Positions 9,042 to 52,646 of a stretch of DNA of 64,000 nucleotides are shown in pieces. How positions within the stretch are numbered: position 1 is the stretch's first letter; each line of letters begins with the position of its first letter. This DNA is from Spirochaetales bacterium (GTDB lineage: Bacteria > Spirochaetota > GWE2-31-10 > MWDO01): assembly GCA_017540815.1 (NCBI GenBank), contig JAFYAI010000144.1, positions 67,705 to 131,704 of the forward strand, written 5' to 3'. Below the pieces are notes generated by a model. The model saw only the letters and a program-made list of their open reading frames with translations, did no database searches and was not told the origin of the DNA. Position numbers and translations under genes: made by a program.

Positions 9042-9087
9042 AAGCTGCTGGTCTCGGAGATACAAGAGTTGTAAAAAAAATAGGTTT

Positions 9088-9117
9088 TGCTGCACAAAAC
9101 CTATTTTTTTTACAGAA
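9088..9117. terminator. bidirectional rho-independent terminator
   Basis: aataggttttg-ctgca-caaaacctatt flanked by A-run and T-run, between convergent genes 6681..9041 (+) and 9130..10446 (-). Confidence 0.7.
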
Positions 9118-9129
9118 AATCTATTTTTT

Positions 9130-30335: not shown

Positions 30336-30365
30336 GTTTTACTCCTGTTTCTTTCCTCAAACAAA

Positions 30366-34934: not shown

Positions 34935-35007
34935 TTCACAATCCTTATCCGTAGTGACGGTTCTTTTTATCTTGAAATTATTATAAACTTTTAATAAAAA
35001 AAATAAA

Positions 35008-35023
35008 AATACTATTATTATTG
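35008..35023 (+). promoter_or_regulatory. copy A of the conserved motif AAATACTATTATTATTG, 74 nt upstream of gltB and 45 nt upstream of the divergent lysR
   Basis: Identical 16-17-mer also at 50230 and 52483, each upstream of a nitrogen-assimilation transcription unit. Confidence 0.55.
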
Positions 35024-35067
35024 ACAAACTATGCAAAAAAAGTATATTATATATGTGAGGATTTTCT

Positions 35068-35961
35068 ATGGAGTTACGACATATAAAATATTTTCTTGCA
35101 GTAGCAGAAGAACAAAACATTACAAAGGCTTCGGAAAAGATTTGCATTTCACAGCCGCCTTTAAGTCGGGCTTTGATGGACTTGGAATACGAACTGAACT
35201 GCAAACTTTTTATCCGCGGGAAAAGGCGGATCACTCTCACCGAAGAAGGTCTTGCTCTAAAGCGGCGCGGCGAACAGCTGCTTGCCCTTGCCGAAATGAC
35301 AAAATCAGAGATTACCGAAATTAAAAACGGAATCAGCGGAACTCTGCATTTGGGACATGTTGACTCGAACGGACCGAGTCTTGCCGCTCAATGGATCTCT
35401 TCTTTCAAAAAGAAATATCCCACCGTCACTTACAATTTGTGGTGCGGCAATGTTGACGATCTTACCGACAGAATGAAAGCAGGTCTGATCGATCTTGCCA
35501 TAACGATGACACCGATGAACACGGAACTTTTAAACGGCATTAAAGTCTATTCCGAAAACTGGGTCGCCATCATTCCGCCGGGACACAAGCTTGCTCAGAA
35601 CAGGAAAAAGTCCGTGAGCATAGAAGAACTTATCGGGAATGACCTGATTATTTCTTCAAGGAAAAGCCGCGAAGAAGAAATCCGTGAATGGTTCAAAAGC
35701 ACAAATAAAGAGCCGCATTTTGTGGTAAAAACTGCCCATTCGTCAAATGCCGCAAAACTCGTCGAACAGGACATTGGTATCGCACTTTTCCCGGCCTCCG
35801 TTGCCAAAAATGTTACGGCAGGCTCTGAAGTCGTGATCAAAAAAATCACACCCGAAAAAACAGTGGAATACTATCTGTCTTGGATTAAAGAAAAATCCCA
35901 AAGCCTTCTTGCTCAGAAGTTTGTCCAGCATGTGCAGGATTTGGTGGGGGGAGAGGAGTAA
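35068..35961 (+). CDS. LysR-family transcriptional regulator, GltC-like by position (divergent from gltBD)
   Basis: N-terminal HTH MELRHIKYFLAVAEEQNITKASEKICISQPPLSRAL, then a LysR substrate-binding domain. 297 aa. Confidence 0.85.
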   Translation: MELRHIKYFLAVAEEQNITKASEKICISQPPLSRALMDLEYELNCKLFIRGKRRITLTEEGLALKRRGEQLLALAEMTKSEITEIKNGISGTLHLGHVDSNGPSLAAQWISSFKKKYPTVTYNLWCGNVDDLTDRMKAGLIDLAITMTPMNTELLNGIKVYSENWVAIIPPGHKLAQNRKKSVSIEELIGNDLIISSRKSREEEIREWFKSTNKEPHFVVKTAHSSNAAKLVEQDIGIALFPASVAKNVTAGSEVVIKKITPEKTVEYYLSWIKEKSQSLLAQKFVQHVQDLVGGEE

Positions 35962-35997
35962 AGACCTCACCCCTGCCTAGCTTTACCCGCTATAAAC

Positions 35998-36441
35998 TTA
36001 TAAAGATTTACATAAAAACATTTCCATAGGTTGTTCATAGCCTGAGAGATTCATTATTATTCCGCCACAGTCTTGATAACCAAGTTTTCTGTAAAAATGC
36101 TGTGCTGATTCATCAACTTGAGTAGATGTTAATACTATTCCATAGCCTTGATGTTTCATATCGTTTTCCCAATGATTTATAAGTAAAGAACCATATCCTT
36201 TTTTCTGTTCATTCCAGTCTATAAAAAGCAAAGTGCAAAATGGCGTATTATCCCAAAAAAGATTATATCTTAAAATTCCAACTGGTTTTTCATTCACATA
36301 AAGAACATATCCTTGTTTGTCTCGTATCTTTTTTTCAAATTCCGCTTCCGGCAAATGATTGTCTAATTTATACCAGAATTCTTTGTCCTCTTTTTTGACA
36401 TATTCTATTTTGGTCATTTTTTCCTTCTTGATCCAGTGCAC
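35998..36441 (-). CDS. GNAT-family N-acetyltransferase
   Basis: 147 aa. Acetyl-CoA motif ...QKKGYGSLLINHWENDMKHQGYGIVL... Confidence 0.7.
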   Translation of the reverse strand: MHWIKKEKMTKIEYVKKEDKEFWYKLDNHLPEAEFEKKIRDKQGYVLYVNEKPVGILRYNLFWDNTPFCTLLFIDWNEQKKGYGSLLINHWENDMKHQGYGIVLTSTQVDESAQHFYRKLGYQDCGGIIMNLSGYEQPMEMFLCKSL

Positions 36442-36448
36442 GCGTTAT

Positions 36449-37843
36449 CTACTTTATTGCCCAATGTCCCGTCTTTTTAGAACCTTCTCGCTCTATAATT
36501 CCTTTTTCACGAAGTGATTTTATTGCTCTGCTGACTGTCGGCATTGAAAATCTTGTAAGCCATGCTATTTCATCGGTTTTAATTAAAGGATTCTTTTTTA
36601 TTTCTTCCAAAACAGCGTTCTCTGATTCCGAAAGATTTAATCTATCATTTATTCTATCATTTATTCTATCAATACTGTCATTTAATCTATCATTTAATTT
36701 ATCATCATTACAATTTAATCTGTCATCTATCAGATTATTTTTTTCTGAATCAAAGAAAAATACCACATGAAAGAAGTTTGGCGAGATGTGGAAAATGTCA
36801 GGTTTATAGACATTCATCATGCGATTCATGCCACTGCCTAGTTGCTCCACAAATTCGGCATCTTTGAATACTCTCATTAATTCACGGTTTCGTGGGCGAG
36901 AAATACCACTTGTAAGTTCCTCTTGTGTCATACCATCTATAAGACCGCCGTAATTGGTAATTTCAAGACGGTCACTGAACAACTCAAAAACAGGTGTCAT
37001 CAAATCTGTATAATCGTTATGGACAAAGGCGTTAATGACCGCTTCTCTCATAGCGACAGAATCATACATTTGCTTTTCTATACGAAATTTATCTGTAATC
37101 TTTGTAAAGGTCTTATTTTCAATGCGAAGTTTGTCCAAAACTCTGTCTGTTGCCTTCAAAAGGGAACAATAACCGAGTTCTTCATTTTCAATTAAGTCCA
37201 CTTTATTTGTTCCTGCATATTTCGCAAATTTGATAGAAACACCATTTTCATCAGCCAGCAGATAAGCAAGAATGTTGTATTTTCCGTTAGGCGTATAAAA
37301 TTCAAGTGTCTTTGCAAATTCGGCATTCAGATTCTTTCCATGTTCCTCATAATAAATCCGCAACTGATTGAAAGTTAAATCCTGACGAGGTGCTTCAATT
37401 ACACGCAAGTTGCATCTTGTTCTGCGTGCAAAAAGATTTTCAATCATTTGTACCGAAAGGCTTTGCGTTTGACTTCCGATGCGTATAAAACAGCCATCGG
37501 GAGTCATTCCTTTTTGCTTTAAGTAATATGGCTTTTCGGTACCGCTTGAAACAATGACTTTGATATAGTACAGCGGATTTTTATCGTAAGTTTGTTCAAG
37601 AATTACATCGTATAAGCCTAAAGTTTCAGGAGCAATGTTGTTTTTAATTCTATCCGCAATTTGCAGTTGAACTTCATCGGGTTTTTCAACACCAATAATT
37701 TCACCATCATCGTTTACCCCAATGTAAATCGTGCCACCAGTGGAACTATTGAGCAATGCTACAATACTACGCTCAAAACGGTCGTTCAATATAAGTTTGT
37801 ACTCATAAAATTTTGATTCTGGATTTAGAATATGCTTGCTCAT
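36449..37843 (-). CDS. Schlafen/AlbA_2 + HATPase_c_4 + C-terminal wHTH protein (often annotated as putative transcriptional regulator or RecG-related ATP-binding protein)
   Basis: AlbA_2 signature VALLNSSTGGTIYIGVNDDGEIIGV. HATPase_c_4 block REAVINAFVHNDYTD...LEITNYGGL. C-terminal PTVSRAIKSLREKGII. Confidence 0.75.
   Translation of the reverse strand: MSKHILNPESKFYEYKLILNDRFERSIVALLNSSTGGTIYIGVNDDGEIIGVEKPDEVQLQIADRIKNNIAPETLGLYDVILEQTYDKNPLYYIKVIVSSGTEKPYYLKQKGMTPDGCFIRIGSQTQSLSVQMIENLFARRTRCNLRVIEAPRQDLTFNQLRIYYEEHGKNLNAEFAKTLEFYTPNGKYNILAYLLADENGVSIKFAKYAGTNKVDLIENEELGYCSLLKATDRVLDKLRIENKTFTKITDKFRIEKQMYDSVAMREAVINAFVHNDYTDLMTPVFELFSDRLEITNYGGLIDGMTQEELTSGISRPRNRELMRVFKDAEFVEQLGSGMNRMMNVYKPDIFHISPNFFHVVFFFDSEKNNLIDDRLNCNDDKLNDRLNDSIDRINDRINDRLNLSESENAVLEEIKKNPLIKTDEIAWLTRFSMPTVSRAIKSLREKGIIEREGSKKTGHWAIK
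36634..36733. repeat. 12-bp tandem repeat (about 7-8 units, consensus atttattctatc / atttaatctatc) inside the Schlafen-like CDS, encoding (DRLN/DRIN)n
   Basis: Seen directly. All units are multiples of 3 nt and therefore in-frame. Confidence 0.8.
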
Positions 37844-37908
37844 TGTTGACCACCAAATTATTTTCGATTTCTTATTCTACTGCAAATATATATTTTTGCT
37901 TTGACTAA

Positions 37909-38637
37909 TCATTTCTCTTCAAACAGTTCCTTAATATAATGGCGTAAGGATTGTAAGGATTGATCTATACTTTTGGAATAGACAAAACCATTAAGATAAT
38001 CTCTTTTTAAATCAAGTGGAAGCACATCCTTGTATTTTTCAATTACGGATATCATCTCACGTGCGTCCTCAAAATCGTCATTGTAAAACTTGAATTCCTT
38101 GTTTCCGAATTTATAAGAAACATATACTTTGTATCTATAAGGGTGCCTATTAGTGGTTCCGTGGCCGGGAGATTTCAGTATCTTCTTGAATCCGACCTGT
38201 ATGCTTTCAGCTTCGGCAAGATTATAATTTTTTGACAAGTATTCTGTAATGAACCTGCTTTTCACAGTTTCGTCATAAAGTTCCGAGCGGCAAAAAAACG
38301 GTGTGACAAAGCAAGATAAAAATAAAATCAGACCTGCAATAAAAAGCGGCCGCCTCTTTTCTTTCCATGGTTTTTTACTCCATGAATTTGGAAGAAGCCC
38401 CATTTCCCCGCACGCCTCACCAATCACAAAAGTGACAAAAATCAAAAAAATATATCCAAGATATTTGAGCCACGAAGGGTGAACAGCAAGAGCGTCCGAT
38501 GTGGCAAACACGATTTTCTTCTGAATCGGATTGTAGACGAACATGTAAACCGGTATTGCAAAAAAAGACAAAAAAACAGGATCTTTAATAAATCTTTTCT
38601 TCGGTTTTTCTTCCGTTGGTCCGGTAATATATTCCAT
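37909..38637 (-). CDS. hypothetical membrane protein (3-4 TM helices)
   Basis: 242-aa ORF. Hydrophobic segments in the N-terminal 120 aa. 10-nt gap to the upstream ORF. Confidence 0.55.
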   Translation of the reverse strand: MEYITGPTEEKPKKRFIKDPVFLSFFAIPVYMFVYNPIQKKIVFATSDALAVHPSWLKYLGYIFLIFVTFVIGEACGEMGLLPNSWSKKPWKEKRRPLFIAGLILFLSCFVTPFFCRSELYDETVKSRFITEYLSKNYNLAEAESIQVGFKKILKSPGHGTTNRHPYRYKVYVSYKFGNKEFKFYNDDFEDAREMISVIEKYKDVLPLDLKRDYLNGFVYSKSIDQSLQSLRHYIKELFEEK

Positions 38638-38646
38638 AGTATCCTC

Positions 38647-39351
38647 CTATTCAGACTCAACAGGTGACGGGTATAACGATTCATAAGTGGAAAAATCCTC
38701 TGTGGAATCTTTGGAAGAGGTGTCCCGAATATCTTGCAGCCAATCGTCGTTCCAATACTCATCGTAATCGTTTTCGTAATCGTTGTCGGAAAATTCACTG
38801 GAAGGCTTCATCTCGTCCATCAATTCCTTGATGGAAACGTTTTCAGAAGCCGGATGCAGAATCTTCTGAAAATCGGCGTCCGCCAACGACGAAATGCCCG
38901 GCATAACAAGCCAGCCCAACGCCAGTGCATATAAAATGGAAGCAACAGAGTGTCGCAAAGGAGAAATCATCTTCCACGGCTTGTTTTTTTTCACCCGAAT
39001 CGTACACGGACCCGCGACAGGATTATAGCCCGGAAGATTGCTCATAAGAGTAGGAGTTGAAATATACAGTTTATCGTCCACAATATAGCGGTATGTAGGA
39101 ACCTTCAATCTTGGAATATAAAACTTAAAATACCCATGACCGATGTTGCGAGCTTGCCCTGTCACCGTCGCATCCTTTATGTTGAAGAGCTCAGCGTCAA
39201 CCTTCCGTGTTCCAAAGCCCAGAAGCGGCAGTTCAATAAACAGACCTATAAAAAACTGAATAAGAACTATCAGCATCCAAGTTATATTACTGTCTTTCAC
39301 ATAAGAATACAAAAGCGTAGCAAGAAATCCTTTTATAACCGCTATAATCAT
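38647..39351 (-). CDS. DUF3592-like membrane protein with an acidic C-terminal tail
   Basis: TM-beta-rich-TM layout with VAGPCTIRVKKNKPWKMIS motif. C-terminal 60 aa very acidic. Start overlaps the upstream stop. Confidence 0.55.
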   Translation of the reverse strand: MIIAVIKGFLATLLYSYVKDSNITWMLIVLIQFFIGLFIELPLLGFGTRKVDAELFNIKDATVTGQARNIGHGYFKFYIPRLKVPTYRYIVDDKLYISTPTLMSNLPGYNPVAGPCTIRVKKNKPWKMISPLRHSVASILYALALGWLVMPGISSLADADFQKILHPASENVSIKELMDEMKPSSEFSDNDYENDYDEYWNDDWLQDIRDTSSKDSTEDFSTYESLYPSPVESE

Positions 39352-40182
39352 TTATCCATCCTGTAAAACTTTTTTGAAATTGTTCTTCTCGTCGATTTTT
39401 TCTGCCGCATTCCTAAAAAGACCGTTCACATCCACAATGAATTTTTCGGGCTTTTTCTTGTCTAAAAGAATGCTTACCTTTGTTCCCGGTTTAATAAATT
39501 TGTACGGTTCGGTCCAAAAAACCGCACTTTCAACATATTTTTCTTGTCCATCTGAGTCATAGCAGCAGATAAGGGTGTAATTTTTTTTGAAGCGTAATTT
39601 TCTGTTTATTGTCGTATCCCGCTCTGCATTATGTTCAACAATCTTCACTACAGTTCCTTCTGTTTCAACGGCATTTTTTGCAGAAAGCTCAACCCAGGGA
39701 TGCTCCTTCCAGAAGCGCTTGTTGAAGAGTTTTGTCTTAAGGTAGCCTAAAAGTCCAACCTTGAAGCCTATATAAAAGAAAATGCCTCCCATAACAAGCA
39801 GGAACATCGGCCCAAAAAACAATTCTGACTGCAACCGCGCTTTATAAGGCTCTCCGTTCAGCACATATACGGTGAAAGTTTCCCCTTCCGTCCATGCGGT
39901 GCTGCGAACACCGGGATGAATTTCATATTTTTTTTCATTGTAATAAAAAGAAAACCTGGAACCTTTGTCGGAAACGGAAATCAGCTCCGCCTTTACAGGT
40001 TCGCCTTTTACAACATACTCAATTTTGGAAGGGAGAATCAGGCACATAATCAAAAGCATAACAAGACCCGGAAGGCCAAAGGCAAGAAGTGCAATCTTCA
40101 GCGGCGAATCGATTCCTTTGTCAGTGCGAGGCTTTTCATTCTCAAAAATTTCAATTTTTTGAATAGATTGAATAGAATTCAT
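39352..40182 (-). CDS. membrane protein with two tandem DUF3592-like domains
   Basis: GETFTVYVLNGEPYKARL and GTKVSILLDKKKPEKF blocks, each preceded by a TM helix. 4-nt overlap with the FGE-like ORF upstream. Confidence 0.6.
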   Translation of the reverse strand: MNSIQSIQKIEIFENEKPRTDKGIDSPLKIALLAFGLPGLVMLLIMCLILPSKIEYVVKGEPVKAELISVSDKGSRFSFYYNEKKYEIHPGVRSTAWTEGETFTVYVLNGEPYKARLQSELFFGPMFLLVMGGIFFYIGFKVGLLGYLKTKLFNKRFWKEHPWVELSAKNAVETEGTVVKIVEHNAERDTTINRKLRFKKNYTLICCYDSDGQEKYVESAVFWTEPYKFIKPGTKVSILLDKKKPEKFIVDVNGLFRNAAEKIDEKNNFKKVLQDG

Positions 40183-41507
40183 ATTCCTTTCTCCGTTTTA
40201 TTATCATCTTCTGTCTGCTGCTGCGGACGGGCGTGCGGGGCGATCTGATGCGACAAGCCATCTCCAATGTGCCTGCCTGCTGCCCGGAACGAACCACACG
40301 GAAGCTGCGGCTGCCGCTCCTGCTGCCCGGAACGGACAACACGGAAACCTACGCCGTAGTTCCCGATGCCGGGGTCATAGTCGCCACGCCCCGACACTGA
40401 GCAGAGGTTCGCAAAATAGTTCCAACTGCCGCCGCGAAAAACTCGGCAATCGCCCGACGATTCTCCGGCGTAATCTTTACTATTTGATCGATTATCGCCA
40501 TACCAATCCCAGCACCATTCCCAAACATTGCCGCTCATATCATATATTCCGAGTTCATTGGCTTGCTTTGTATTTACTTCGTGTGATACAAATCCGCTGT
40601 TGCCATTATACCAAGCGACTTCGTCAATATCATTACTGCCGGCATATTTATATCCTTGACTGCTGCTTCCTCCGCGTGCGGCAAACTCCCATTCATTCTC
40701 TGTCGGCAGGCGATAGCCGTCAGCCGTCAGCTCACAAACTGCGTTATCCCACAATGTATCGTTATCTGTCGGCACACTTGCTGCATCTTCGGGATATGTG
40801 CCGTCTGAGAGTTTATAGCAGCGTGTCCTGCCCATCAGCAGCGACAATTTGTTGCAGAAGACTATCGCATCATACCAGCTGACTTGTTCCACCGGATGAT
40901 TGCAGCCTTTGAAATAAGCAGGATTATGCCCCATTACTTCTTCGTAGAGTCTCTGTGTCACCTGATATTTGCCGATCTCAAAACCGCTTACCGTAATGCT
41001 GTATTTCTTACGCTCAGCTTCACATTTCAATGTGCCGCCTTCCACTCGGATCATCGGACAAATATCATTGACTGTTATATTCAGGCTCTTTAGCCTATCG
41101 ATGACATCATCTTTATCGGCTTTGGCGGCGATGAGAGCAAGTATGTCGTTGAGATTTTCCACCCATTCGACAACTTTTGCATTTGCCAGCTCCAGCTCGA
41201 TGTTATACTTGCCCCAAATGATAATATACTGAGCCTGCTCGCCATGATATGGCCTGACATTTGCCAAGCCGAATGCAGCAACAGCACGCTCCAACGCAGT
41301 CTTCGCAGAAACATAATTAATCTCATCAAGTTTTGCCTGTTTGGCTTTTTCTATATCAAAGTCGGTATTATGACAGTTATCCGTATTATGACAGTCATCC
41401 TCAGAATTAAGGGCATCCATGAACCCCGTTATTATATCAAAGTCGGATTTTATTATATCAAAGGCAGAATTTATTATATCGAAGTCAGTATTATGACGGT
41501 TATCCAT
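40179..41507 (-). CDS. FGE-sulfatase (formylglycine-generating-enzyme fold) domain protein, non-catalytic type, with a repeat-rich N-terminal extension and an aberrant duplicated C-terminus
   Basis: Core YQVTQRLYEEVMG...GYRLPTENEWEFAARGG...DMSGNVWEWCWDWYG...RVFRGGSW...GFRVVRSGQQ lacks the FGE Cys-x4-Cys pair. The 3' end contains a roughly 40-bp tandem duplication re-encoding FRVVRSGQQ in another frame (40290-40390). Confidence 0.75.
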   Translation of the reverse strand: MDNRHNTDFDIINSAFDIIKSDFDIITGFMDALNSEDDCHNTDNCHNTDFDIEKAKQAKLDEINYVSAKTALERAVAAFGLANVRPYHGEQAQYIIIWGKYNIELELANAKVVEWVENLNDILALIAAKADKDDVIDRLKSLNITVNDICPMIRVEGGTLKCEAERKKYSITVSGFEIGKYQVTQRLYEEVMGHNPAYFKGCNHPVEQVSWYDAIVFCNKLSLLMGRTRCYKLSDGTYPEDAASVPTDNDTLWDNAVCELTADGYRLPTENEWEFAARGGSSSQGYKYAGSNDIDEVAWYNGNSGFVSHEVNTKQANELGIYDMSGNVWEWCWDWYGDNRSNSKDYAGESSGDCRVFRGGSWNYFANLCSVSGRGDYDPGIGNYGVGFRVVRSGQQERQPQLPCGSFRAAGRHIGDGLSHQIAPHARPQQQTEDDNKTEKGI

Positions 41508-41530
41508 AGAATGCTCCTAATATAATTATA

Positions 41531-41567
41531 AAAAGATAAAAAAATCAAAGACTTTTTTATCTTTTTA
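41531..41567 (-). terminator. rho-independent terminator after the second FGE-like gene
   Basis: aaaaagataaaaaa-tcaaagac-ttttttatcttttt hairpin with flanking U-tract. Confidence 0.6.
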
Positions 41568-41575
41568 TAATTGAT

Positions 41576-41600
41576 CATTGCTCACTGCACATTGCCCATT
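41576..41600. repeat. 25-bp direct repeat copy 1 (cattgctcactgcacattgcccatt)
   Basis: 24/25 identical to 42770..42794. The two copies bracket the second FGE-like gene. Confidence 0.75.
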
Positions 41601-41604
41601 GCCC

Positions 41605-42462: not shown

Positions 42463-42726
42463 TGAATTATCCTTCCTTTTTGTAGAATTTGTATTTATAT
42501 TATATTTTACACGAAATATGAGAATAATTCAATAAAAATCAGGATTTTTATCTTTTTTGTAGATTTTTTTGCAATAATGATGTGATTATGTCTTGGAATT
42601 TCAAGCATATTGTCAATATTAACACCATAAAAGGAATAAAAGTCCTGACAACAATGGAAGGATATAAAGATATATTGATTTATTCACCGGAAGCGTTCCA
42701 AATTGATAAGGAGGATAATGATGAAA

Positions 42727-42766
42727 ACAAAATAGATTTTGCTTCGCAAAATCTATTTTGTTTTAC
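42727..42766 (-). terminator. rho-independent terminator downstream of carB
   Basis: aaaatagatttt-gcttcgc-aaaatctatttt perfect 12-bp stem followed by a U-run on the minus strand. Confidence 0.65.
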
Positions 42767-42769
42767 AAT

Positions 42770-42794
42770 AATTGCTCACTGCACATTGCTCATT
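42770..42794. repeat. 25-bp direct repeat copy 2 (aattgctcactgcacattgctcatt)
   Basis: See copy 1. Lies between the carB stop and its terminator. Confidence 0.75.
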
Positions 42795-42802
42795 AAAATC
42801 AG

Positions 42803-45800
42803 TTACACCTCTTCTACGCCAATCGTCATCTCTTCAAGCACATCAAGCAGCACACGTACCGTGTCAAGCGATGTGAACATTGTTACGCGGTTTTGCGTGG
42901 CGGCTCGGCGAATGGCAGCTCCGTCTTTGTAATGAATACCGGAAAGAATCGCCCTTGTGTTGACCACATAGCTTACATAACCGGCACAGATTGAGTCGAT
43001 AACCTCGTGACTTCCTTCGCTGAGTTTATGAAGCGTTCGTGTTTGTATTCCGTGTCGGTTTAAGAATTCCGCAGTATGCGTTGTTGCTTCTATGTTGAAG
43101 CCCAGTTCGTAAAATCTTTTTGCAAGCGGCAGACCTTCTTCTTTGTCTTCGTTGGCAAGGGTAAAGATTACCGTTCCGTAATTCTGAATGCCGATCCCGC
43201 TTGCTGTCAATGCCTTGTAAAGAGCCCGATGAAGTTTCTTGTCATAACCGATCGCCTCTCCCGTAGACTTCATTTCCGGCGAAAGATAAGAGTCCATTCC
43301 CTGAAGTTTTGAGAAAGAGAATACCGGAGCTTTCACAAACCATCTCTGTCCGCGTCCGGGATTCATATCCGTAATGCCCTGATTGCGGAGTGTCTGCCCT
43401 ATTGCGATTTTCGCCGCAATATCAGCCAAATAAAATCCTGTCGCCTTTGACAGGAAAGGCACAGTCCGGCTGCTTCTGGGATTTACTTCGATGATGTAGA
43501 CTTTTTGATCAGGCGACACGATAAACTGAATGTTGAAAAGTCCGCGGATTCCAATCGCAAGCCCCAGTCTCCTCGTGTAGTCGCGGATTGTCTCCTGTAC
43601 TGCATCCGAAATCGAAAAAGTCGGATACACACTGATAGAATCCCCCGAATGAACGCCGGTCCGCTCAACAAGCTCCATAATGCCGGGGATAAAGACATCC
43701 GTACCGTCGCAGATCGCATCAACCTCAATTTCCTTGCCGGCAATATAATGATCTACCAGCACGGGACGCTTCTCATCAATCTCAACGGCGGTCTTCAGAT
43801 AATGACGCAGATCTGCTTCTTTGGAAACAATCTGCATCGCTCGTCCGCCCAAAACAAAACTCGGTCGCACAAGAACAGGATAGCCGACTTTTTCCGCTGC
43901 CGCTACACCGTCTTCGATCGAAGTTACGGCAACGCCGGATGACTGCGGAATGTTTTCGTTTTCAAGAAGCATCTCAAACAAGTCTCGGTCTTCCGCTTTT
44001 TTTATCGCTTCAAAATCCGTTCCGATTAAATGAACACCTCGTTCGGTCAGCGATTCGGCAAGATTTACCGCCGTTTGACCGCCAAGACTCACGATCACGC
44101 CAAGCGGATGCTCCATCTCTATCACATTCATTACATCTTCTATAAAAAGCGGCTCAAAGTAAAGTTTGTCGCTCGTCGTATAATCTGTGGAAACAGTCTC
44201 CGGATTATTGTTAATTACAATCGCCTCATATCCCGCCTCACGCAGAGTCTTCACCGCATGCACCGTAGAGTAGTCAAACTCAACTCCCTGACCGATACGG
44301 ATTGGACCTGCACCCAAGACGATTATTTTTTGCTTCGTGCCGAGCTGCACCGCTTCATTCTCGCTTTCATAGCAGGAATAAAAATATGGCACATAACTTT
44401 TGAACTCCGACGCACAGGTATCTATCATTTTGTAAACCGGCATAATGCCGCTTTGTTTCCTCAGTTCAAAAACTTCTTTTTCGGTTTTTTGCCACAAATG
44501 TGCAATGTAACGGTCAGAAAATCCCATCCGCTTCGCTTTCAAAAGTTCGTCAGTGTCAAGCGGATTTGCTTTTAAGACTTTTTCTTCCTGCACGATTTTA
44601 TTTATTTTATATAAAAAGAACTTGTCGATTTGTGTTATCTCGTGAATATTATTCAGTGTATTTTCATCCCTCCACAAAAGTTCAGCGATCGCATAAAGGC
44701 GGTCATCTGTTCCTTTTGAGATATAAGCAAAAAGTTCTTCATCAGACAAACTGTCAAACTTTTTCAGATAAATGTGTTCAACGCCCAGTTCAAGACTGCG
44801 GATCGCTTTCAGAAGGCTTTCTTCAAAAGTGCGTCCAATGCTCATCGCCTCGCCTGTGGCTTTCATCTGTGTGCCGAGCGTCTGGTTCGCATCGGTGAAT
44901 TTGTCAAACGGGAAACGAGGCATCTTTGTCACAACATAGTCAAGTGCAGGCTCAAAGCAGGCACTCGTATTTGCAAGACTGATCTCATCAAGGGTAAACC
45001 CAACGCTGATCTTTGTGGAGACTCGTGCAATCGGGTAACCGCTCGCCTTGGATGCCAATGCCGAAGACCGTGAAACACGCGGATTAACCTCTATCAGATA
45101 ATACTGAAACGACTGCGGATCGAGTGCGAACTGCACATTGCAGCCACCCTCAACTTTGAGTGCACGGATAAGCTTCAATGCACTGTCGCGGAGCATGTGA
45201 TATTCTCTGTTGGTCAGCGTCTGGCTTGGACACACTACGATTGAGTCGCCGGTATGAATGCCCACGGGATCCAAGTTTTCCATATTGCATACGGTGATCG
45301 CCGTATCGCTGCTGTCACGGATTACTTCATATTCGATCTCCTTGTAGCCCTTCACGCTTTTTTCTACAAGCACTTCACTCACCGGGGACAGTTCAAGTCC
45401 TTTTTTTAGAATTTCGTCAAGCATCGCCTCATCATCGGCAAAGCCGCCGCCTGTTCCGCCAAGGGTGAATGCCGGACGCAGCACCACTGGATAGCCGATT
45501 TCTTTTGCGGCTTTTCGCCCTTCTTCAAGCGAATGAACAGTGATCGAAGGCAAAACAGGTTCGCCGATTTGTTTGCACAAGTTCTTGAAGAGTTCACGGT
45601 CTTCTGCCATTTCTATACTTTCGAGTTTTGTTCCCAAAAGTTCACAGCTGCATTCGGAGAGAACGCCTTTTTTTGCAAGCTGGACAGCGAGATTGAGACC
45701 TGTCTGACCGCCAAGACCCGGCAGGATTGCATTGGGGCGTTCCTTGCGGATAATCTTTGCCATATATTCAAGGTTAAGCGGTTCCATATATATTTTATCC

Positions 45801-45982
45801 GCCACCGTTTTATCAGTCATAATCGTAGCGGGATTCGAGTTGCACAGGACAACTTCGTAGCCTTCCTCTTTTAAGGCAAGAGCAGCTTCCGTTCCCGCAT
45901 AGTCAAATTCCGCTGCCTGTCCGATCACAATCGGACCTGAGCCGATTACCAATATTTTGTGAATGTCTGTTCTTTTTGGCAT
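42803..45982 (-). CDS. carB: carbamoyl-phosphate synthase large subunit
   Basis: 1059 aa. Duplicated ATP-grasp halves and C-terminal MGS-like domain. N-terminal MPKRTDIHKILVIGSGPIVIGQAAEFDYAG. Confidence 0.95.
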   Translation of the reverse strand: MPKRTDIHKILVIGSGPIVIGQAAEFDYAGTEAALALKEEGYEVVLCNSNPATIMTDKTVADKIYMEPLNLEYMAKIIRKERPNAILPGLGGQTGLNLAVQLAKKGVLSECSCELLGTKLESIEMAEDRELFKNLCKQIGEPVLPSITVHSLEEGRKAAKEIGYPVVLRPAFTLGGTGGGFADDEAMLDEILKKGLELSPVSEVLVEKSVKGYKEIEYEVIRDSSDTAITVCNMENLDPVGIHTGDSIVVCPSQTLTNREYHMLRDSALKLIRALKVEGGCNVQFALDPQSFQYYLIEVNPRVSRSSALASKASGYPIARVSTKISVGFTLDEISLANTSACFEPALDYVVTKMPRFPFDKFTDANQTLGTQMKATGEAMSIGRTFEESLLKAIRSLELGVEHIYLKKFDSLSDEELFAYISKGTDDRLYAIAELLWRDENTLNNIHEITQIDKFFLYKINKIVQEEKVLKANPLDTDELLKAKRMGFSDRYIAHLWQKTEKEVFELRKQSGIMPVYKMIDTCASEFKSYVPYFYSCYESENEAVQLGTKQKIIVLGAGPIRIGQGVEFDYSTVHAVKTLREAGYEAIVINNNPETVSTDYTTSDKLYFEPLFIEDVMNVIEMEHPLGVIVSLGGQTAVNLAESLTERGVHLIGTDFEAIKKAEDRDLFEMLLENENIPQSSGVAVTSIEDGVAAAEKVGYPVLVRPSFVLGGRAMQIVSKEADLRHYLKTAVEIDEKRPVLVDHYIAGKEIEVDAICDGTDVFIPGIMELVERTGVHSGDSISVYPTFSISDAVQETIRDYTRRLGLAIGIRGLFNIQFIVSPDQKVYIIEVNPRSSRTVPFLSKATGFYLADIAAKIAIGQTLRNQGITDMNPGRGQRWFVKAPVFSFSKLQGMDSYLSPEMKSTGEAIGYDKKLHRALYKALTASGIGIQNYGTVIFTLANEDKEEGLPLAKRFYELGFNIEATTHTAEFLNRHGIQTRTLHKLSEGSHEVIDSICAGYVSYVVNTRAILSGIHYKDGAAIRRAATQNRVTMFTSLDTVRVLLDVLEEMTIGVEEV

Positions 45983-45983
45983 T

Positions 45984-47066
45984 TTACCTGCTCCTTTCCA
46001 TTGATTTTATAAACTCGTCAAACAAATACTTGCCGTCGGTCGGACCGGGAGAACTCTCGGGGTGATACTGCACACTGAATGTCGGCTCGCTTTTATGACG
46101 CAAGCCTTCAATCGTTTTATCCAACAGATTAATGTGCGTAACTTCAAGACCTGTTCCTGCAAGTGAGTTTTCGTCCACCGCATAAGAATGATTCTGGCTT
46201 GTGATTTCTATTTTGCCGGTCAGAAGATTCTTGACAGGATGATTGCCGCCGCGATGACCAAACTTCAGCTTATAAGTTTTTGCTCCGTATGCAAGCGAGA
46301 TTATCTGATGACCGAGGCATATCCCGAAAATCGGGATGCTGCCGCGAAGTGATTTTACAAGAGCAATCGCTTCTCGGACATCTGTAGGATTGCCAGGACC
46401 GTTGGACAGGAACACTCCATCCGGATTACAGGCTCGCACTTGCTCTGCCGTAACATTCCACGGGAAAACCGTAACGGAACAGCCGCATGCCAACAGAGAA
46501 CGCACAATGTTTTGTTTCATGCCAAAGTCAATCGCCGCCACACGGAACTTTTCGTTTTCTGCTTTGTATTCTTCGGCAGTCTTTCTGCTCACGCGAGCTA
46601 CCGCATCGCACGGTGCTTTGTACTCGGCAAGTTTGCTTAATGCGTCATTTTTATCCGCTGCGGCGGATGTGAGCAGGACATTCATGCAGCCGCAGTCACG
46701 GATTTTTCGCACAAGAGCTCGCGTATCAACTCCGGAGATTCCTGCGATATTATATTGCTTCATCAGCGAAGAAAGTGTTCCTGTTGAACGGAAGTTGGAA
46801 GGCTCATCGTTGTAATCACGAACGACAAGTGCACCGATTGTGGGCGTGCGTGTTTCAAAATCATCGTCATTTATACCGTAATTCCCGATTAGAGGATATG
46901 CCATCACGACAGCCTGATCAGTATATGACGGATCGGAAATTATTTCCTGATAGCCGACAGGTGATGTGTTGAATACAAGTTCCAACATCTTTTCGCAGTC
47001 AGCTCCGAATGAGTATCCGTAAAACTCACTCCCATCCGGCAAAACAAGTTTTTTATTCTCTTTCAT
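45984..47066 (-). CDS. carA: carbamoyl-phosphate synthase small (glutamine amidotransferase) subunit
   Basis: GICLGHQ catalytic Cys motif and HPE near the C-terminus. 1-nt gap to carB. Confidence 0.95.
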   Translation of the reverse strand: MKENKKLVLPDGSEFYGYSFGADCEKMLELVFNTSPVGYQEIISDPSYTDQAVVMAYPLIGNYGINDDDFETRTPTIGALVVRDYNDEPSNFRSTGTLSSLMKQYNIAGISGVDTRALVRKIRDCGCMNVLLTSAAADKNDALSKLAEYKAPCDAVARVSRKTAEEYKAENEKFRVAAIDFGMKQNIVRSLLACGCSVTVFPWNVTAEQVRACNPDGVFLSNGPGNPTDVREAIALVKSLRGSIPIFGICLGHQIISLAYGAKTYKLKFGHRGGNHPVKNLLTGKIEITSQNHSYAVDENSLAGTGLEVTHINLLDKTIEGLRHKSEPTFSVQYHPESSPGPTDGKYLFDEFIKSMERSR

Positions 47067-48502
47067 ACTCCCTCCTGAATATTCCCTTCAAATCTATCCT
47101 TTCGCATGTCCTTCGGTATGGGGACGGGGTAGTCTCCGTCAAAACATGCACAACAATATCCTCTGCCGCATGTCATTTTTTCCAAAGCATGCAAAGGCAA
47201 AAACGCAAGGCTGTCCGCTCCTATCATTTTTGCGATCTCCTCTATGCTGTGATGAGTTGCGATCAGATATTCTTCGGAATCTATATCTACACCGTAGAAG
47301 CACGGATGCCTAAACGGCGGACTGGATATCCGCACATGGATTTCTTTTGCTCCGGCTTCCCGCAAAAGTTCTACGATTCTTCGGCTTGTAGTTCCCCGCA
47401 CGATTGAATCGTCAATTAACACAATTCGCTGTCCGCTGACGACGCTCTTTATCGGACTAAGTTTCAGACGCACCGTATCACTGCGTAATTGCTGGTTCGG
47501 AGCGATAAAACTTCTGCCGGTATATTTGTTTTTAATAAGCCCTGTCTCGTAAGGAATGTGACTTCGCTTGGCATAACCTATCGCCGCATCAAGCCCCGAA
47601 TCAGGAACGCCTATTACAATGTCAGCATCGGCAGGGTATGTTTGTGCAAGAATTTCTCCGGCTGTGATACGAGACTGATGAACGCTCACTCCGTCAATCA
47701 CAGAGTCAGGACGCGAAAAATAAATGTATTCAAAAACGCAGGTTCTCTGCGGCTGCTTTTCGCAGATGATTTTCTTCGACTCGTAGATAGCCTTTCCGCT
47801 TTCATTGACAGAAAAGACTATCATCTCTCCGGGTCCGACATCACGAATACCTTTCGCATGGACTGCCTCCAATGCACAAGTTTCGGAAGCAGCTACATAA
47901 GAGCCGTCTTCTCGAACGCCAAAAACCAAAGGACGCAATCCCAGCGGATCGCGAACGGCAATCATTTTTGTTGAAGTCATAATCACAAGACTGTAAGCCC
48001 CTTCAAGACTTGCACAGGCACGGCTCACCGCTTCCTCGATGCTCGAACATTTCAATCGTTGTCGGGTAATGCAGGTACATATCACTTCAGTATCGCTCGT
48101 TGTGTGGAAGATCGCACCATCCTGTTCAAGATTTTTTCGCAGAGACAGTGTGTTGGTCAGGTTTCCGTTATGGGCAACAGCAAGCCTCCCGTTCAAGTGA
48201 TTTACAGTCATAGGCTGTGCATTTTCCTTACAGTTGCTGCCTGTCGTTCCGTAACGCACATGAGCGATTGCGGCATTGCCCTGCGGCAGACCGGCAAGCA
48301 CATCATCAGAGAAAACTTCCCCCACAAGCCCAAGATCTTTATGCACAGTAAAAACTCCGTCGTCATTGACGACCATTCCGCAGGCTTCCTGCCCCCTGTG
48401 CTGCAGACTGAAAAGCCCGTAATAGCAAAGACCGGCCATATCATCTTTATGAGTACCGAAAATTCCGAAAACACCGCATTCCTCATGTATGCTCATCTGC
48501 AA
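47063..48502 (-). CDS. purF: amidophosphoribosyltransferase
   Basis: Short propeptide, then CGVFGIF (Ntn Cys), PRTase motif VLIDDSIVRGTT, C-terminal Fe-S Cys ligands. Confidence 0.9.
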   Translation of the reverse strand: MQMSIHEECGVFGIFGTHKDDMAGLCYYGLFSLQHRGQEACGMVVNDDGVFTVHKDLGLVGEVFSDDVLAGLPQGNAAIAHVRYGTTGSNCKENAQPMTVNHLNGRLAVAHNGNLTNTLSLRKNLEQDGAIFHTTSDTEVICTCITRQRLKCSSIEEAVSRACASLEGAYSLVIMTSTKMIAVRDPLGLRPLVFGVREDGSYVAASETCALEAVHAKGIRDVGPGEMIVFSVNESGKAIYESKKIICEKQPQRTCVFEYIYFSRPDSVIDGVSVHQSRITAGEILAQTYPADADIVIGVPDSGLDAAIGYAKRSHIPYETGLIKNKYTGRSFIAPNQQLRSDTVRLKLSPIKSVVSGQRIVLIDDSIVRGTTSRRIVELLREAGAKEIHVRISSPPFRHPCFYGVDIDSEEYLIATHHSIEEIAKMIGADSLAFLPLHALEKMTCGRGYCCACFDGDYPVPIPKDMRKDRFEGNIQEGV

Positions 48503-48555
48503 ACTCCATTACTCATCTCGAATGTATCGAATATGTAATTTGTCATAATGCAATC

Positions 48556-50172
48556 CTATTTGCCGCTGTCGCCGTAGTTGGAAAGAACTCTTGCACTCGG
48601 ATCGTTTACATTGCAGCCTTCCCATTCTTTGTTTGGCATCCAGAAATCTTTTATCATCTGAGATTGTCCGGGATAATATTTCTCGAAGATCTCACGATAC
48701 AAAAGCGATTCTTTGGTAAACGGCTGTGCATGCGTGTATTGTGTACGCTTTTCTTCAAATTCCTGATCCGAGTAATACTGCTGGGCATATTCTTTGAGGT
48801 CATTCACCATAGAATGTCCCACTGCGTCCGAGAAAGCGGCTTTTTCTCGCATCAGAATCTCCATCGGCAGATAGTCGCCGTCCTTAAATGCGTGACGAAG
48901 AAGATATTTCCCCTTGTTGTAGCGGTTCATCTTCATCTCAGGATTGATCGACATAACATAATGAACAAAATCCAGATCGCCAAAAGGCACTCGTGCTTCA
49001 AGCGAGTTTACTGAGATGCAACGGTCGGCACGAAGAACATCATACATGTGCAATTCGTGGACACGCTTTTGTGCTTCTTTTTGGAATGCGTCGGCATTCG
49101 GAGCGAAGTCCGTGTACTTGTATCCAAAAAGTTCGTCACTCACTTCACCTGTCAAAAGAACCCGAATGTCAGTATTTTCGCCAATCCACTTGCACAAAAG
49201 ATACATTCCCATACTCGCCCTGATTGTCGTGATGTCGAAAGTCCCCAACAGATAGATCACATTCTCAAGAGCGTCAAGAACATCTTTCTTTGTGATGATG
49301 ACTTCCGTGTGGTCAGTTTCCAAAAAATCCGCAGTCTGCTTTGCATATTTTAAGTCGATTGCATCTTTTTCCATTCCGATTGCAAAAGTCCTGATTGGTT
49401 TACCTGCATTTTTCTGCGAGCGGGCAGCAATCGAACAGACAAGCGACGAATCCAATCCTCCCGACAGCAGGAATCCGACTTTGGCATCTGCGACAAGACG
49501 CTTCTCAACTCCTGCAATTAGTTTTTCGCGAATAGAGTTGCAGACCGTCTCAATGTCGTCATTTATATAAGGCAAAGTCGGTTTTGAGATGTCGCAGTAA
49601 CAAATAAACTTGCCGTCCTTATAATAATGTCCCGGCGGGAAAGGCAATATTTCACCGCTTGCAATATCTGTTAAGAGTTTAGGCTCACTTGCAAAAAGAA
49701 TCCCGCCTTCGCTGTCGTAACCGTAATAAAGAGGTCTTATTCCGATTGGGTCTCTGGCAGCAATCCATTTTTTGTCTTGTGCGTCATAAATGACAAGGGC
49801 AAATTCAGCATCAAGTTTGTTAAACATTTGTGTGCCGTATTCACGATAAAGCGGCAGGAGAATCTCGCAGTCGCTTCCGCTTTTGAATGTCCAGCCCTTT
49901 GCGATTAAATTCTCTCGCATGCTTTCAAAACCGTAAATCTCGCCGTTGCAAACAGAATAAGAACCGTCCAATTCAAAAGGCTGCATCCCATTCGGACTGA
50001 GCCCCATAATCGAAAGCCGCTGAAATCCCATAAGACCTATCCGATCGCCATTGGCATCGGTAATTTCGATGATTCTGTCATCATCAGGTCCTCTGGAATG
50101 TGTTCTAAGCATTGCCTGTTTCATTTTTTGTTTGCTTGCAAATGTTCCGCACCAAGTCATAACGCAGCACAT
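48556..50172 (-). CDS. asnB: asparagine synthase (glutamine-hydrolysing)
   Basis: N-terminal MC.. Ntn amidotransferase, RGPD, NGEIY, PP-loop SGGLDSS. Confidence 0.9.
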   Translation of the reverse strand: MCCVMTWCGTFASKQKMKQAMLRTHSRGPDDDRIIEITDANGDRIGLMGFQRLSIMGLSPNGMQPFELDGSYSVCNGEIYGFESMRENLIAKGWTFKSGSDCEILLPLYREYGTQMFNKLDAEFALVIYDAQDKKWIAARDPIGIRPLYYGYDSEGGILFASEPKLLTDIASGEILPFPPGHYYKDGKFICYCDISKPTLPYINDDIETVCNSIREKLIAGVEKRLVADAKVGFLLSGGLDSSLVCSIAARSQKNAGKPIRTFAIGMEKDAIDLKYAKQTADFLETDHTEVIITKKDVLDALENVIYLLGTFDITTIRASMGMYLLCKWIGENTDIRVLLTGEVSDELFGYKYTDFAPNADAFQKEAQKRVHELHMYDVLRADRCISVNSLEARVPFGDLDFVHYVMSINPEMKMNRYNKGKYLLRHAFKDGDYLPMEILMREKAAFSDAVGHSMVNDLKEYAQQYYSDQEFEEKRTQYTHAQPFTKESLLYREIFEKYYPGQSQMIKDFWMPNKEWEGCNVNDPSARVLSNYGDSGK

Positions 50173-50229
50173 ATTTTTTTACCTCGCATTGAATGTTGTT
50201 GAATTATAGTCATTTTATTAAAAAAATTA

Positions 50230-50247
50230 AAATACTATTATTATTGG
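50230..50247 (+). promoter_or_regulatory. copy B of the conserved motif AAATACTATTATTATTGG, about 58 nt upstream of the asnB start
   Basis: See 35008. Lies between the glnA terminator and asnB, so it heads the asnB-purF-carA-carB unit. Confidence 0.55.
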
Positions 50248-50282
50248 ATAATAATATAAAAAAGGTATGGAATACCCATTAC

Positions 50283-50316
50283 ATAAAAACAGCGAGAGAA
50301 ATCTGTTCCCTCGCTA
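50283..50316 (-). terminator. rho-independent terminator after glnA
   Basis: agcgaggg-aacagattt-ctctcgct hairpin plus U-run on the minus strand, directly after the glnA stop at 50325. Confidence 0.55.
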
Positions 50317-50324
50317 TTTATGCT

Positions 50325-52424
50325 TTATCTCACTCCGTATAGCAAGTCACCATAAGTCGGGAACGGCCAAATGTCCTTTGGCGTTATAAGTTCAAGGCTA
50401 TCGGCGGCAGTGCGGATTTTTTCCATATCCGCCAAAACACTGTCGTGGAAGAATATGGCTTTTTTTGCAGGGTCACATTCTTCTGTCACTTTTGCCAAGT
50501 CGCTTTCGAGAACTTTTACACCTTCATATATCTCTTTTGTCAGCGAGCAGACTTCCTCAAATGTTTCAGCCTCGTAGCTTACATCGCAGCCGCTATATGC
50601 GGTCTGCATAGCACTAATCGTTTTCGACAGTGCAAGAGAGAATTTCTGTGCCGCAGGTAAAATCTGCTTCCTCGTCATATCAACCATTGTTGCAGCCTCA
50701 ATTCCCAAGATCTTTATGTAATTCTCATAGTGAATCTCATTTCTGGAAAGAAGCTCCACTTTTGAGTAAACACCGTGCTTTTCAAACAGGCGAATGTTCT
50801 TTTCTTCCATCGTGTGCTGCAACGCTTCCGGTGTTGAGCGAAGATTCAAAAGACCCCGTTTTTCAGCTTCCTTTACCCACGAATCATCGTATCCGTTTCC
50901 GTTAAAGATAATTCGCTTATGCTCACTGATGTTCTTGACAATCAATGCATGAAGATCGGCATTGAAGTCCTTTGACTTTTCAAGAATGTCGGCAGCCTGT
51001 TCAAGTTCTTCTGCCACTATTGTGTTGAGGAAAACATTCGCACAGGCAATCGATTCATTAGAACCGAGCATTCGGAACTCAAATTTGTTTCCGGTGAATG
51101 CAAACGGAGATGTTCTGTTTCTGTCGGTTGTGTCCTTGTTGAACTCAGGCAGGACAGAAACGCCAATCTGCATTTTTTCCTTGGCAGACTCGCCGTAAGG
51201 CTTGCCGGAAAGCAGTGCATCAAGAATACCCTGAAGCTCTTCACCCAAGAAAATCGAAATAATAGCCGGAGGTGCTTCGTTTGCTCCAAGTCTGTGGTCA
51301 TTTCCGGCACTCGCAACGGAAATACGAAGCAAATCCTGATATTCGTCAACGCCTTTTATAATAGCACTCAAGAACAACAAAAACTGTGCATTTTGGCTCG
51401 GTGTCGCACCCGGATCAAGCAGGTTTTTGCCTGTATTCGTAGAGATTGACCAGTTGTTGTGCTTGCCGCTGCCGTTCACACCTGCAAAAGGTTTTTCGTG
51501 AAGCAGACAAACCATCCCGTGCTTTGAAGCGGTCTTTCGCATAAGCTCCATAGTAAGCTGGTTGTGATCGCAGGCAAGGTTCGTCGTGCCAAATATCGGT
51601 GCCAATTCGTGCTGAGCAGGAGCAACTTCGTTGTGTTCTGTTTTCGCAAGAATTCCAAGTTTCCAAAGTTCCTTGTTCAGATCTTTCATAAATTCCTGAA
51701 CACGCGGCTTAATCATTCCAAAGTAATGATCTTCCAGTTCCTGTCCCTTTGGACTTTTTGCACCGAACAAAGTTCGACCGGTAAAGATTAAATCCTCACG
51801 CTTGTCATAAAGTGCTTTGTCCACCAAAAAATATTCCTGTTCCGGTCCGACGGTGGTTATAACATTCGTTACATCTTCATTGCCGGGGAAAAGGTGAAGA
51901 ACTCTAACCGCCTGTTTCTTAATCGCCTGCATTGAGCGAAGAAGCGGAGTTTTTTTATCCAATGCCTCACCGGTGTAAGAGCAGAATGCCGTCGGAATAC
52001 AAAGCGTGCCGTCCTTAATAAATGCGTAAGAAGTCGGATCCCATGCCGTGTAGCCTCGTGCCTCAAAAGTTGCTCGCAGACCTCCGCTCGGAAAACTTGA
52101 AGCGTCAGGCTCGCCCTGCACAAGCTCCTTGCCAGAAAATTCCATAATGACATTTCCGCCTGATGTCGGCTCAATAAACGAATCATGCTTTTCCGCAGTT
52201 GTTCCGGTCAGCGGCTGAAACCAGTGAGTAAAATGTGTAGCCCCATTTTCAATAGCCCAGTCTTTCATCGCATTGGCAACAACTGTTGCAACACTGCCGT
52301 CCAGTTTTTCACCGAGTGTAATCGTCTTCATCAGTGCCTTGAAAGTTTCCTTAGGCAGCCGGGACTTCATCACGCTCTCGTTAAATACCATACTTCCAAA
52401 TATCTCTGTAACTTCAGAACCCAT
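50325..52424 (-). CDS. glnA: glutamine synthetase type III
   Basis: 699 aa. [24 protein letters not shown] block matches the GSIII N-terminal region. Far larger than GSI. Confidence 0.85.
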
Positions 52425-52482
52425 ATATTCCTCCTGATTTTTTTATTACGAGGCTGATTATAGCGGATTATCGTTAAATACG

Positions 52483-52499
52483 CAAATACTATTATTATT
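52483..52499 (+). promoter_or_regulatory. copy C of the conserved motif AAATACTATTATTATTA, about 60 nt upstream of the glnA start
   Basis: See 35008. Confidence 0.55.
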
Positions 52500-52646
52500 A
52501 ATAAATGATACCTATTAGGTATTGTAAATTTTCTATATATTTCTTAAACAAAACACTTTTCATTTAAAAAAAAATGTGCTATCATACCGCTCGGTTATGC
52601 GGCAGCTTTTAAGCGGTCAGTTCGTTCACAATTGGAGGCAACATTT

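Follow-up and report, generated by a model that had tools for sequence, protein, structure and literature searches.

Which protein reads a 16-nt sequence that recurs, letter for letter, upstream of three sets of nitrogen-assimilation genes? The question is raised by a 64-kb stretch of a Spirochaetales genome (contig JAFYAI010000144.1, hereafter the window), in which AAATACTATTATTATT lies ahead of gltB-gltD, asnB-purF-carA-carB and glnA, and in which a gene for a LysR-type transcriptional regulator (LTTR), starting at position 35068, stands divergent from gltB. We hold with good confidence that the 16-mer is the promoter-proximal activation site of a two-part LTTR operator, which would be bound by this regulator (LysR 35068) and would serve to activate the ammonium-assimilation genes.

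The 16-mer is found exactly three times when the window is scanned (copies A, B and C, all matching on the plus strand), each time in the same orientation relative to the downstream gene, as originally noted, and with its low edge 73 (gltB), 58 (asnB) or 60 (glnA) nt from the A of the start codon. Dinucleotide shuffles (n = 100) gave a mean expectation of 0.07 copies for AAATACTATTATTATT and none of the 100 reached three, which upholds the original prediction that the repetition is not due to chance. The search with up to two mismatches that it proposed, here limited to the window, returned the three nitrogen promoters and nothing else. With up to three mismatches, three additional hits appear, one being a minus-strand self-match overlapping copy A (35002-35017) and the two others (61545 and 63063) lying outside the three promoters, against a shuffled background of 1.37 matches on average and 6 at most. 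Copies A and B are identical over 18 nt (aAAATACTATTATTATTg). The repeat had been described as 16-17 nt long; it is indeed exact in all three places, but the common core has 16 nt and not 17, and of the positions first given for the three sites those of copies A and C were off by one, whereas the end of copy B (50247) was set two bases beyond the 16-mer. A repeat or mobile element was rejected, the flanks being different and the similarity only operator-length, and so was an RNA element, the motif lying upstream of the predicted start sites; a search of four related loci against Rfam gave nothing relevant.

Profile and domain matches agree with the names first proposed for the genes concerned (gltB-gltD, asnB-purF-carA-carB, type III glnA and the LysR gene). 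The identity of carB is taken from the Pfam CPSase large-subunit domains listed for the identical gene in contig L001, and the type III glutamine synthetase (GlnA3) shows 98% identity to a protein from a Spirochaetales metagenome-assembled genome and 79% to its Treponema rectale counterpart. The window, part of a 241-kb metagenome scaffold, is accordingly assigned to an uncultured Treponema-like spirochaete; an origin in Firmicutes, suggested by the Shine-Dalgarno sequences and the GC content, was rejected. Three products of the second unit, AsnB, PurF and CarA, belong to the glutamine amidotransferases. Between the genes from asnB to carB no terminator was detected, in line with the terminator-free unit proposed earlier, and glnA ends in a strong intrinsic terminator, implying that asnB has its own promoter. 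The genes therefore fall into three transcription units, with a single copy of the motif ahead of each.

On the coding (minus) strand all three promoters share the layout dyad-N17-AGTATTT-N21-TATAAT, in which AGTATTT is the 3' end of the 16-mer. A separate, perfect TATAAT thus lies 21 nt downstream of every copy, and the earlier suggestion that the motif embeds an extended -10 had to be abandoned; a reading of copy A as -35 TTGTCA and -10 TATTTT was likewise rejected, since copies B and C do not conserve it. The upstream half of the operator, a feature absent from the original prediction, is a 15-bp T-N11-A dyad with the form ATAC-N7-G/A.AT in the three promoters, that is, of the ATAC-N7-GTAT type. 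If transcription starts 7 nt after TATAAT, the dyad would span about -72 to -58, with its centre at -65, and the 16-mer about -49 to -34, with its GTAT at -39 to -36. LTTR-activated promoters are known to combine a symmetric T-N11-A recognition site far upstream with a less symmetric activation site at -35 (PMC11495319). The spacing of the dyad and of the 16-mer, which ends 21 nt before the -10 and so lies next to or over the -35 position, matches this layout, supporting the reading as a bipartite LTTR operator. The GTAT within the activation site lacks a conserved N7 dyad partner; some clades have ATAC-N5-GTAT or ATAC-N11-GTAT.

The hexamers at the -35 position of the three promoters are poor (TTTTAT, TTTAAT and TTGCGT), and a scan with the sigma-70 consensus found no good -35 for any of them, although it does return a strong promoter for the LysR gene itself. 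Poor -35 and perfect -10 hexamers are the signature of activator-dependent promoters, which favours activation. Motif A overlaps the -35 of the LysR promoter by 2 nt and dyad A lies within its spacer and -10; this overlap concerns copy A only, copies B and C being remote from the LysR gene, and implies that LysR would repress its own synthesis, overlaps of this kind being usual in LTTR autorepression.

LysR 35068 is the sole LTTR encoded in the window. Its close homologues all combine PF00126 and PF03466 (HTH_1 and LysR_substrate), the make-up of an LTTR of about 300 aa, and the protein can be aligned along its whole length with CatM, BenM and numerous NCBIfam LTTR models. Among solved structures, the DNA-binding domains nearest to its own are those of BenM (3m1e; DNA complexes 4ihs and 4iht) and CatM, and the recognition helix QPPLSR of LysR 35068 is identical in both when aligned to these structures. 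BenM and CatM recognise ATAC-N7-GTAT, with their Site 2 overlapping the -35, and CatM prefers ATAC-Y-N5-R-GTAT (PMC6628147, PMC11495319). The dyads of the window are of this same type. LysR 35068 does not belong to any of the named families, since it scores 141.1 bits with the GltC model NF053705 (cut-off 350), 91 and 104 bits with the BenM and CatM models (cut-offs 600 and 580) and 81.5 bits with the NAC model NF008410 (cut-off 309). The BenM/CatM-like domain, the LTTR box before each motif and the syntenic orthologues accompanied by the operator (see below) support it as by far the best candidate for the protein that binds the motif, as had been proposed from its divergent position.

Binding sites for other nitrogen regulators were searched for in the three upstream regions, and no TnrA/GlnR (TGTNAN7TNACA), NtcA (GTAN8TAC) or sigma-54 (TGGCAC-N5-TTGCW) box was found there, in agreement with the lack of fit to NtrC/sigma-54, TnrA/GlnR and NtcA boxes noted at the outset. 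The CodY pattern (AATTTTCWGAAAATT) has a sole match with 3 mismatches, AATTTTCTATATATT, at 52527-52541 in the glnA-purA intergenic region and far upstream of glnA, which is probably a chance occurrence in A+T-rich DNA. TnrA/GlnR, NtcA, sigma-54 and CodY were thus rejected as the factors involved, their boxes being absent or at chance level.

The proposed mechanism is a classical one and the regulator-operator pair falls within the known LTTR mould. A LysR 35068 tetramer would bind the dyad and the 16-mer at each promoter and, once loaded with its effector, bring in RNA polymerase or shift its position, in the manner of GltC at its boxes I and II and of BenM at its Sites 1 and 2, leading to joint activation of glnA (glutamine synthetase type III, GS-III), gltBD (glutamate synthase, GOGAT) and asnB-purF-carAB, while occupation of operator A would shut down the LysR promoter. 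We infer activation rather than repression, and tetramer binding, at the three promoters; the example of GltC makes 2-oxoglutarate, glutamate and glutamine candidate effectors.

Table 1. Genes, promoters and operator parts of the proposed LysR-controlled units, numbered from the first nucleotide of the window
Feature	Position	Strand	Details
Target unit 1, gltB-gltD (glutamate synthase)	28806..34934	-	gltB 30366-34934, gltD 28806-30335
Target unit 2, asnB-purF-carA-carB	42803..50172	-	asnB 48556-50172, purF 47063-48502, carA 45984-47066, carB 42803-45982
Target unit 3, glnA (glutamine synthetase type III, 699 aa)	50325..52424	-	GSIII_N, Gln-synt_C and Gln-synt_C-ter domains
Intrinsic terminator of glnA, 12-bp stem and U run	50285..50317	-	-21.7 kcal/mol, z = -4.5
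LysR-type regulator gene (297 aa), proposed binder, divergent from gltB	35068..35961	+	
Motif copy A, proposed activation site of the gltB-gltD promoter	35007..35022	-	coding strand AATAATAATAGTATTT
Motif copy B, proposed activation site of the asnB-purF-carA-carB promoter	50230..50245	-	
Motif copy C, proposed activation site of the glnA promoter	52484..52499	-	
Recognition dyad A, gltB	35031..35045	-	ATACTTTTTTTGCAT (T-N11-A); within LysR promoter spacer and -10
Recognition dyad B, upstream of asnB	50254..50268	-	ATACCTTTTTTATAT
Recognition dyad C, glnA	52508..52522	-	ATACCTAATAGGTAT; perfect ATAC-N7-GTAT palindrome
Predicted -10 TATAAT, gltB promoter	34980..34985	-	21 nt after motif
Predicted -10 TATAAT, asnB promoter	50203..50208	-	21 nt after motif
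Predicted -10 TATAAT, glnA promoter	52457..52462	-	21 nt after motif
Predicted sigma-70 promoter of the LysR gene, TTGACA-16-TATATT	35021..35048	+	overlapped by operator A

Another gene of the window, pyrB (aspartate carbamoyltransferase, 25747-26676), and the adjacent open reading frame (ORF) at 26673-27143 are both without the motif.

Homologues of LysR 35068 with 59-75% identity are present in Saccharofermentans, Ruminococcaceae, Lachnospiraceae, Succinimonas and other Succinivibrionaceae, and in most of these loci the LysR gene is divergent from gltB-gltD-(glnA3)-(amt-PII)-(asnB). The operator lies beside the LysR start in 36 of the 41 such loci, in the form ATACC-N5-GGTAT, N17/18, (A/T)GTATTTTATTT, with TACAAT or TATAAT 21 nt after GTATTT. 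A second Treponema contig (L004), whose GlnA3 and GltB are 86% and 81% identical to those of the window, encodes a LysR (8981-9865) with 65-68% identity to LysR 35068, located between asnB and glnA3 and divergent from the latter. Operators with this geometry, in a variant proper to the lineage (AAAnnTAAnAGTATTTTAT), stand at four places in L004, before asnB, glnA3, gltB and amt-PII. The same design is found with the more distant homologues of Oscillospiraceae (40-46% identity), where a dyad ATATC-N5-GATAT precedes purF, asnB, glnA3 and amt-PII. Of 78 composite sites, 54 could be linked to the gene that follows, in every case one of this set (gltB 29, purF 9, asnB 6, amt-PII 6, glnA3 4); the remaining 24 fell outside the simple ORF rule or precede genes for unannotated proteins. 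The spacing to the promoter was also examined without imposing a -10: among 80 unique dyad and GTATTT sites from these LysR-ascertained loci, TAnnnT occurs exactly 21 nt downstream in 78, and control offsets of 19, 20 and 22 nt gave 0 or 1.

Some of these loci carry further elements. Extra operators are present in Oscillospiraceae on the minus strand about 3-4 kb upstream of the LysR gene (L052, L054, L060 and L075; for example position 7089 in L052) and at about 9965 in L082 and L085; the proteins encoded behind them, a conserved one of 302 aa (MLSFLKEEGVSP...) and one of 331 aa (MKTRLLSKKQMQGLL...), are possible regulon members. In addition, about 130 nt of leader follow the LTTR-dependent -10 of the Saccharofermentans/Ruminococcaceae-type gltB (L007-L025, L036, L041, L042 and L088; for example L013:9775-9904, minus strand). 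The initial 68 nt are near-invariant, have paired ends (GAAATC...GATTTC) and contain a second ATAC-N7-GTAT; next, just ahead of the Shine-Dalgarno sequence, comes a hairpin with a stem that co-varies (by eye) and a conserved loop GGTGGTGGATGAAA. Rfam gave no match. This leader could be an additional protein site or an undescribed cis-regulatory RNA.

Public metagenome contigs were scanned for the bare composite, independently of any neighbouring gene (ATAC-N7-GTAT, N17-18, WGTATTT, N21, TAnnnT), giving at least 120 loci. Among the matches listed, a divergent LTTR gene starts within 300 nt of the dyad at 55 of the 108 sites flanked, beyond the dyad, by 400 nt or more (median distance 42 nt), and these LTTRs have a median identity of 36% to LysR 35068. 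Only 2 of 120 listed loci concern gltB, both with a LysR of 68-70% identity, and the others lie mostly beside other LTTRs or are apparent chance hits. This ascertainment from the motif alone independently confirms that the architecture is that of an LTTR operator; the same scan rules out the composite as a nitrogen-specific signature. Since the GTATTT core and the spacings are common to unrelated LTTRs, they appear to be features of a broad LTTR group, and nitrogen specificity would reside in the clade of LysR 35068 and in extra operator positions, namely the complete 16-mer in the case of the window and ...TGTATTTTATTTC in that of clade A; other LTTRs have 3' flanks such as CACATT or GATATT.

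Six human-gut contigs (L096, L110, L162, L171, L199 and L208) encode LTTRs with 41-45% identity beside a near-identical operator (...attataTGTATTTcacatt...-N-TAnnnT). No ORF of at least 100 aa is present in the 250-450 nt downstream, and the neighbouring genes face the promoter; the target there may be a small gene or a small RNA.

Several observations weigh against LysR 35068 as the activator bound at the three promoters. The recognition site of an LTTR is usually better conserved than its activation site, and the window displays the reverse: the 16-mer is identical at 16 of 16 positions in the three copies and better conserved than the dyad, which is a perfect ATAC-N7-GTAT only at glnA. Nor can a clear N7 dyad partner be made out for the distal half of this activation site. 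The start sites on which the promoter coordinates depend were placed from the -10 hexamers only, about 7 nt after TATAAT, and genome coverage consists of the 64-kb window and 22-kb samples from relatives. Finally, among the metagenome matches listed, the bare composite also lies beside many LTTRs of 27-50% identity away from nitrogen genes, so that the architecture alone does not name the LTTR that binds.

Could LysR 35068 nevertheless act mainly as a repressor, its -35 site blocking RNA polymerase until nitrogen limitation relieves the block? The motif does overlap the -35 position, and both GltC and BenM can repress from promoter-proximal sites (PMC6794564, PMC6628147). However, the poor -35 and perfect -10 hexamers point to activator dependence, and it is from a dyad at -65 combined with a site at about -42 that GltC (through boxes I and II) and BenM (through Sites 1 and 2) activate, so that a mainly repressive role is unlikely.

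A different LTTR, encoded by a paralogue outside the window, might also bind the operator, leaving LysR 35068 to regulate gltBD only or something else. The generic nature of the composite leaves room for this, ATAC/GTAT not being unique to LysR 35068 and 64 kb being visible, but LysR 35068 is the one LTTR present and its orthologues, spread over three phyla, keep this operator and these target genes in synteny. Moreover, in L004 the LysR gene adjoins glnA3 and not gltB, yet all four nitrogen promoters carry the L004 variant of the motif. We consider an outside paralogue decidedly improbable.

Little credence can be given to a two-factor arrangement, in which LysR would bind the dyad only and the 16-mer would be the site of a second nitrogen regulator. 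It would account for a 16-mer stricter than the dyad in the window and for a distal half (AATAATAAT) without LTTR-like symmetry; however, the GTATTT core and the 17/18-nt and 21-nt spacings accompany LTTR genes in every clade examined, including those away from nitrogen metabolism, LTTR activation sites are typically asymmetric (PMC11495319), and the boxes of TnrA/GlnR, NtcA and sigma-54 are absent from the three upstream regions. That the motif is a generic promoter element without regulator (an unusual -35 or UP element, or an alternative sigma site) is hardly credible in spite of its A+T-richness, its fixed distance to the -10 and its overlap with the -35 position, since among about 50 genes in the window copies with up to two mismatches occur only at the three nitrogen promoters, the lone other WGTATTT-N21-TAnnnT lies without a dyad inside the ORF at 19861-22929, and the motif is invariably accompanied by an LTTR box and, in most cases, by an LTTR gene.

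With LysR 35068 retained as the probable activator, its position and proposed function resemble those of Bacillus subtilis GltC. There too, a LysR-type gene is divergent from the glutamate synthase operon, with overlapping promoters, and a distal box and a box beside the -35 (boxes I and II, the region also having a box III) are both needed for activation by GltC, a dual activator/repressor responding to 2-oxoglutarate and glutamate (PMC6794564). The system of the window differs by its spirochaete host, its ATAC/GTAT half-sites, the lack of a known glutamate dehydrogenase partner for the LysR and a wider regulon, which would include GS-III and asnB-purF-carAB, and amt-PII in relatives. With BenM and CatM of Acinetobacter it shares the QPPLSR helix, the ATAC-N7-GTAT dyad including ATAC-Y-N5-R-GTAT, and a second site over the -35, but these regulators govern aromatic catabolism (benzoate/catechol) and not nitrogen assimilation, to which the neighbours of LysR 35068 belong, and the activation site of the window keeps one canonical half-site only (GTAT). 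The tetramer with a sliding dimer by which BenM and CatM work (PMC6628147, PMC11495319) is proposed, by analogy, for LysR 35068 as well. The enterobacterial NAC is similar in being an LTTR that acts on nitrogen-metabolism genes from sigma-70 promoters; it differs in having no co-effector and in being itself expressed under NtrC/sigma-54 control, sigma-54 boxes being absent from the three upstream regions of the window. The reported NAC consensus, ATA-N9-TAT, is contained within ATAC-N7-GTAT.

Not all relatives possess this system. No LysR homologue and no motif were found in the 22 kb around glnA3 of T. rectale (L006, CP031517; GlnA3 79%) or of another contig (L005; GlnA3 82%), so that footprinting in relatives, as first proposed, recovered the operator in L004 and the LysR-bearing loci but not in these two. 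They harbor instead a pair of genes coding for a GlnA-like protein (about 400 aa) and an ANTAR protein (L006:1428-3227 and L005:14231-15985), and terminator-type hairpins occur in the leaders of their glnA3, asnB and carA (L006:9700-10000; before L005:10001, 12338 and 20595). The pair is associated with the same set of genes (glnA3, asnB, carAB, gltBD and amt) but apparently acts at the RNA level, by antitermination at terminator-containing leaders; neither GlnA-like and ANTAR genes nor such leaders were found in the window. The LysR and ANTAR systems thus appear to be alternatives on the same genes in sister Treponema lineages.

In a neighbour-joining tree, LysR 35068 falls among homologues (71-76% identity) from Succinivibrionaceae and rumen Clostridia. 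The LysR of L004, with only 68% identity to LysR 35068, reaches 81% with that of a Lachnospiraceae contig (L033; LysR at 10001-10870 in L033 and L035), and the dyad beside it (ATGCAAAAAAAGTAT) is identical to the dyad of Lachnospiraceae contig L035. Between the two Treponema contigs, by contrast, the target enzymes share 81-86% identity, and with their Clostridial counterparts 59-68%. Because the L004 LysR is thus nearer to Lachnospiraceae than to the window and has an L035-identical dyad, whereas the enzymes are nearer to each other, these comparisons suggest that the LysR gene and its operator were acquired independently by horizontal transfer in the two Treponema lineages. In Clostridia, one operator heads the tightly spaced gltB-gltD-glnA3-(amt/asnB), resembling one long operon; in the window, the same nitrogen genes are split into three units with one operator copy each. 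We tentatively propose, at somewhat less than an even chance, that the clade is an unrecognised master regulator of ammonium assimilation (GS-III, GOGAT, Amt-PII and glutamine amidotransferases) in gut and rumen anaerobes, which would move together with its operator and would have entered two Treponema lineages independently, seeding operators before resident genes and replacing the ANTAR control kept by T. rectale.

To our knowledge, nitrogen control is essentially uncharacterised in spirochaetes and in the dominant Clostridia of the rumen and gut, and a literature search, whose coverage was incomplete and which is no proof of novelty, found no paper on LysR control of GS-III genes or on a LysR nitrogen regulator in Treponema or rumen Clostridia. 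The present analysis supplies a concrete and testable regulator-operator pair for these organisms, with a predicted regulon that would couple the synthesis of glutamine and glutamate with the amidotransferases that consume glutamine. The rigid geometry of the operator may permit regulon prediction in hundreds of uncultured genomes. Finally, the presence of an LTTR or of an ANTAR system on the same genes in sister Treponema lineages, together with a LysR tree suggestive of horizontal transfer, offers a case study of regulatory replacement.

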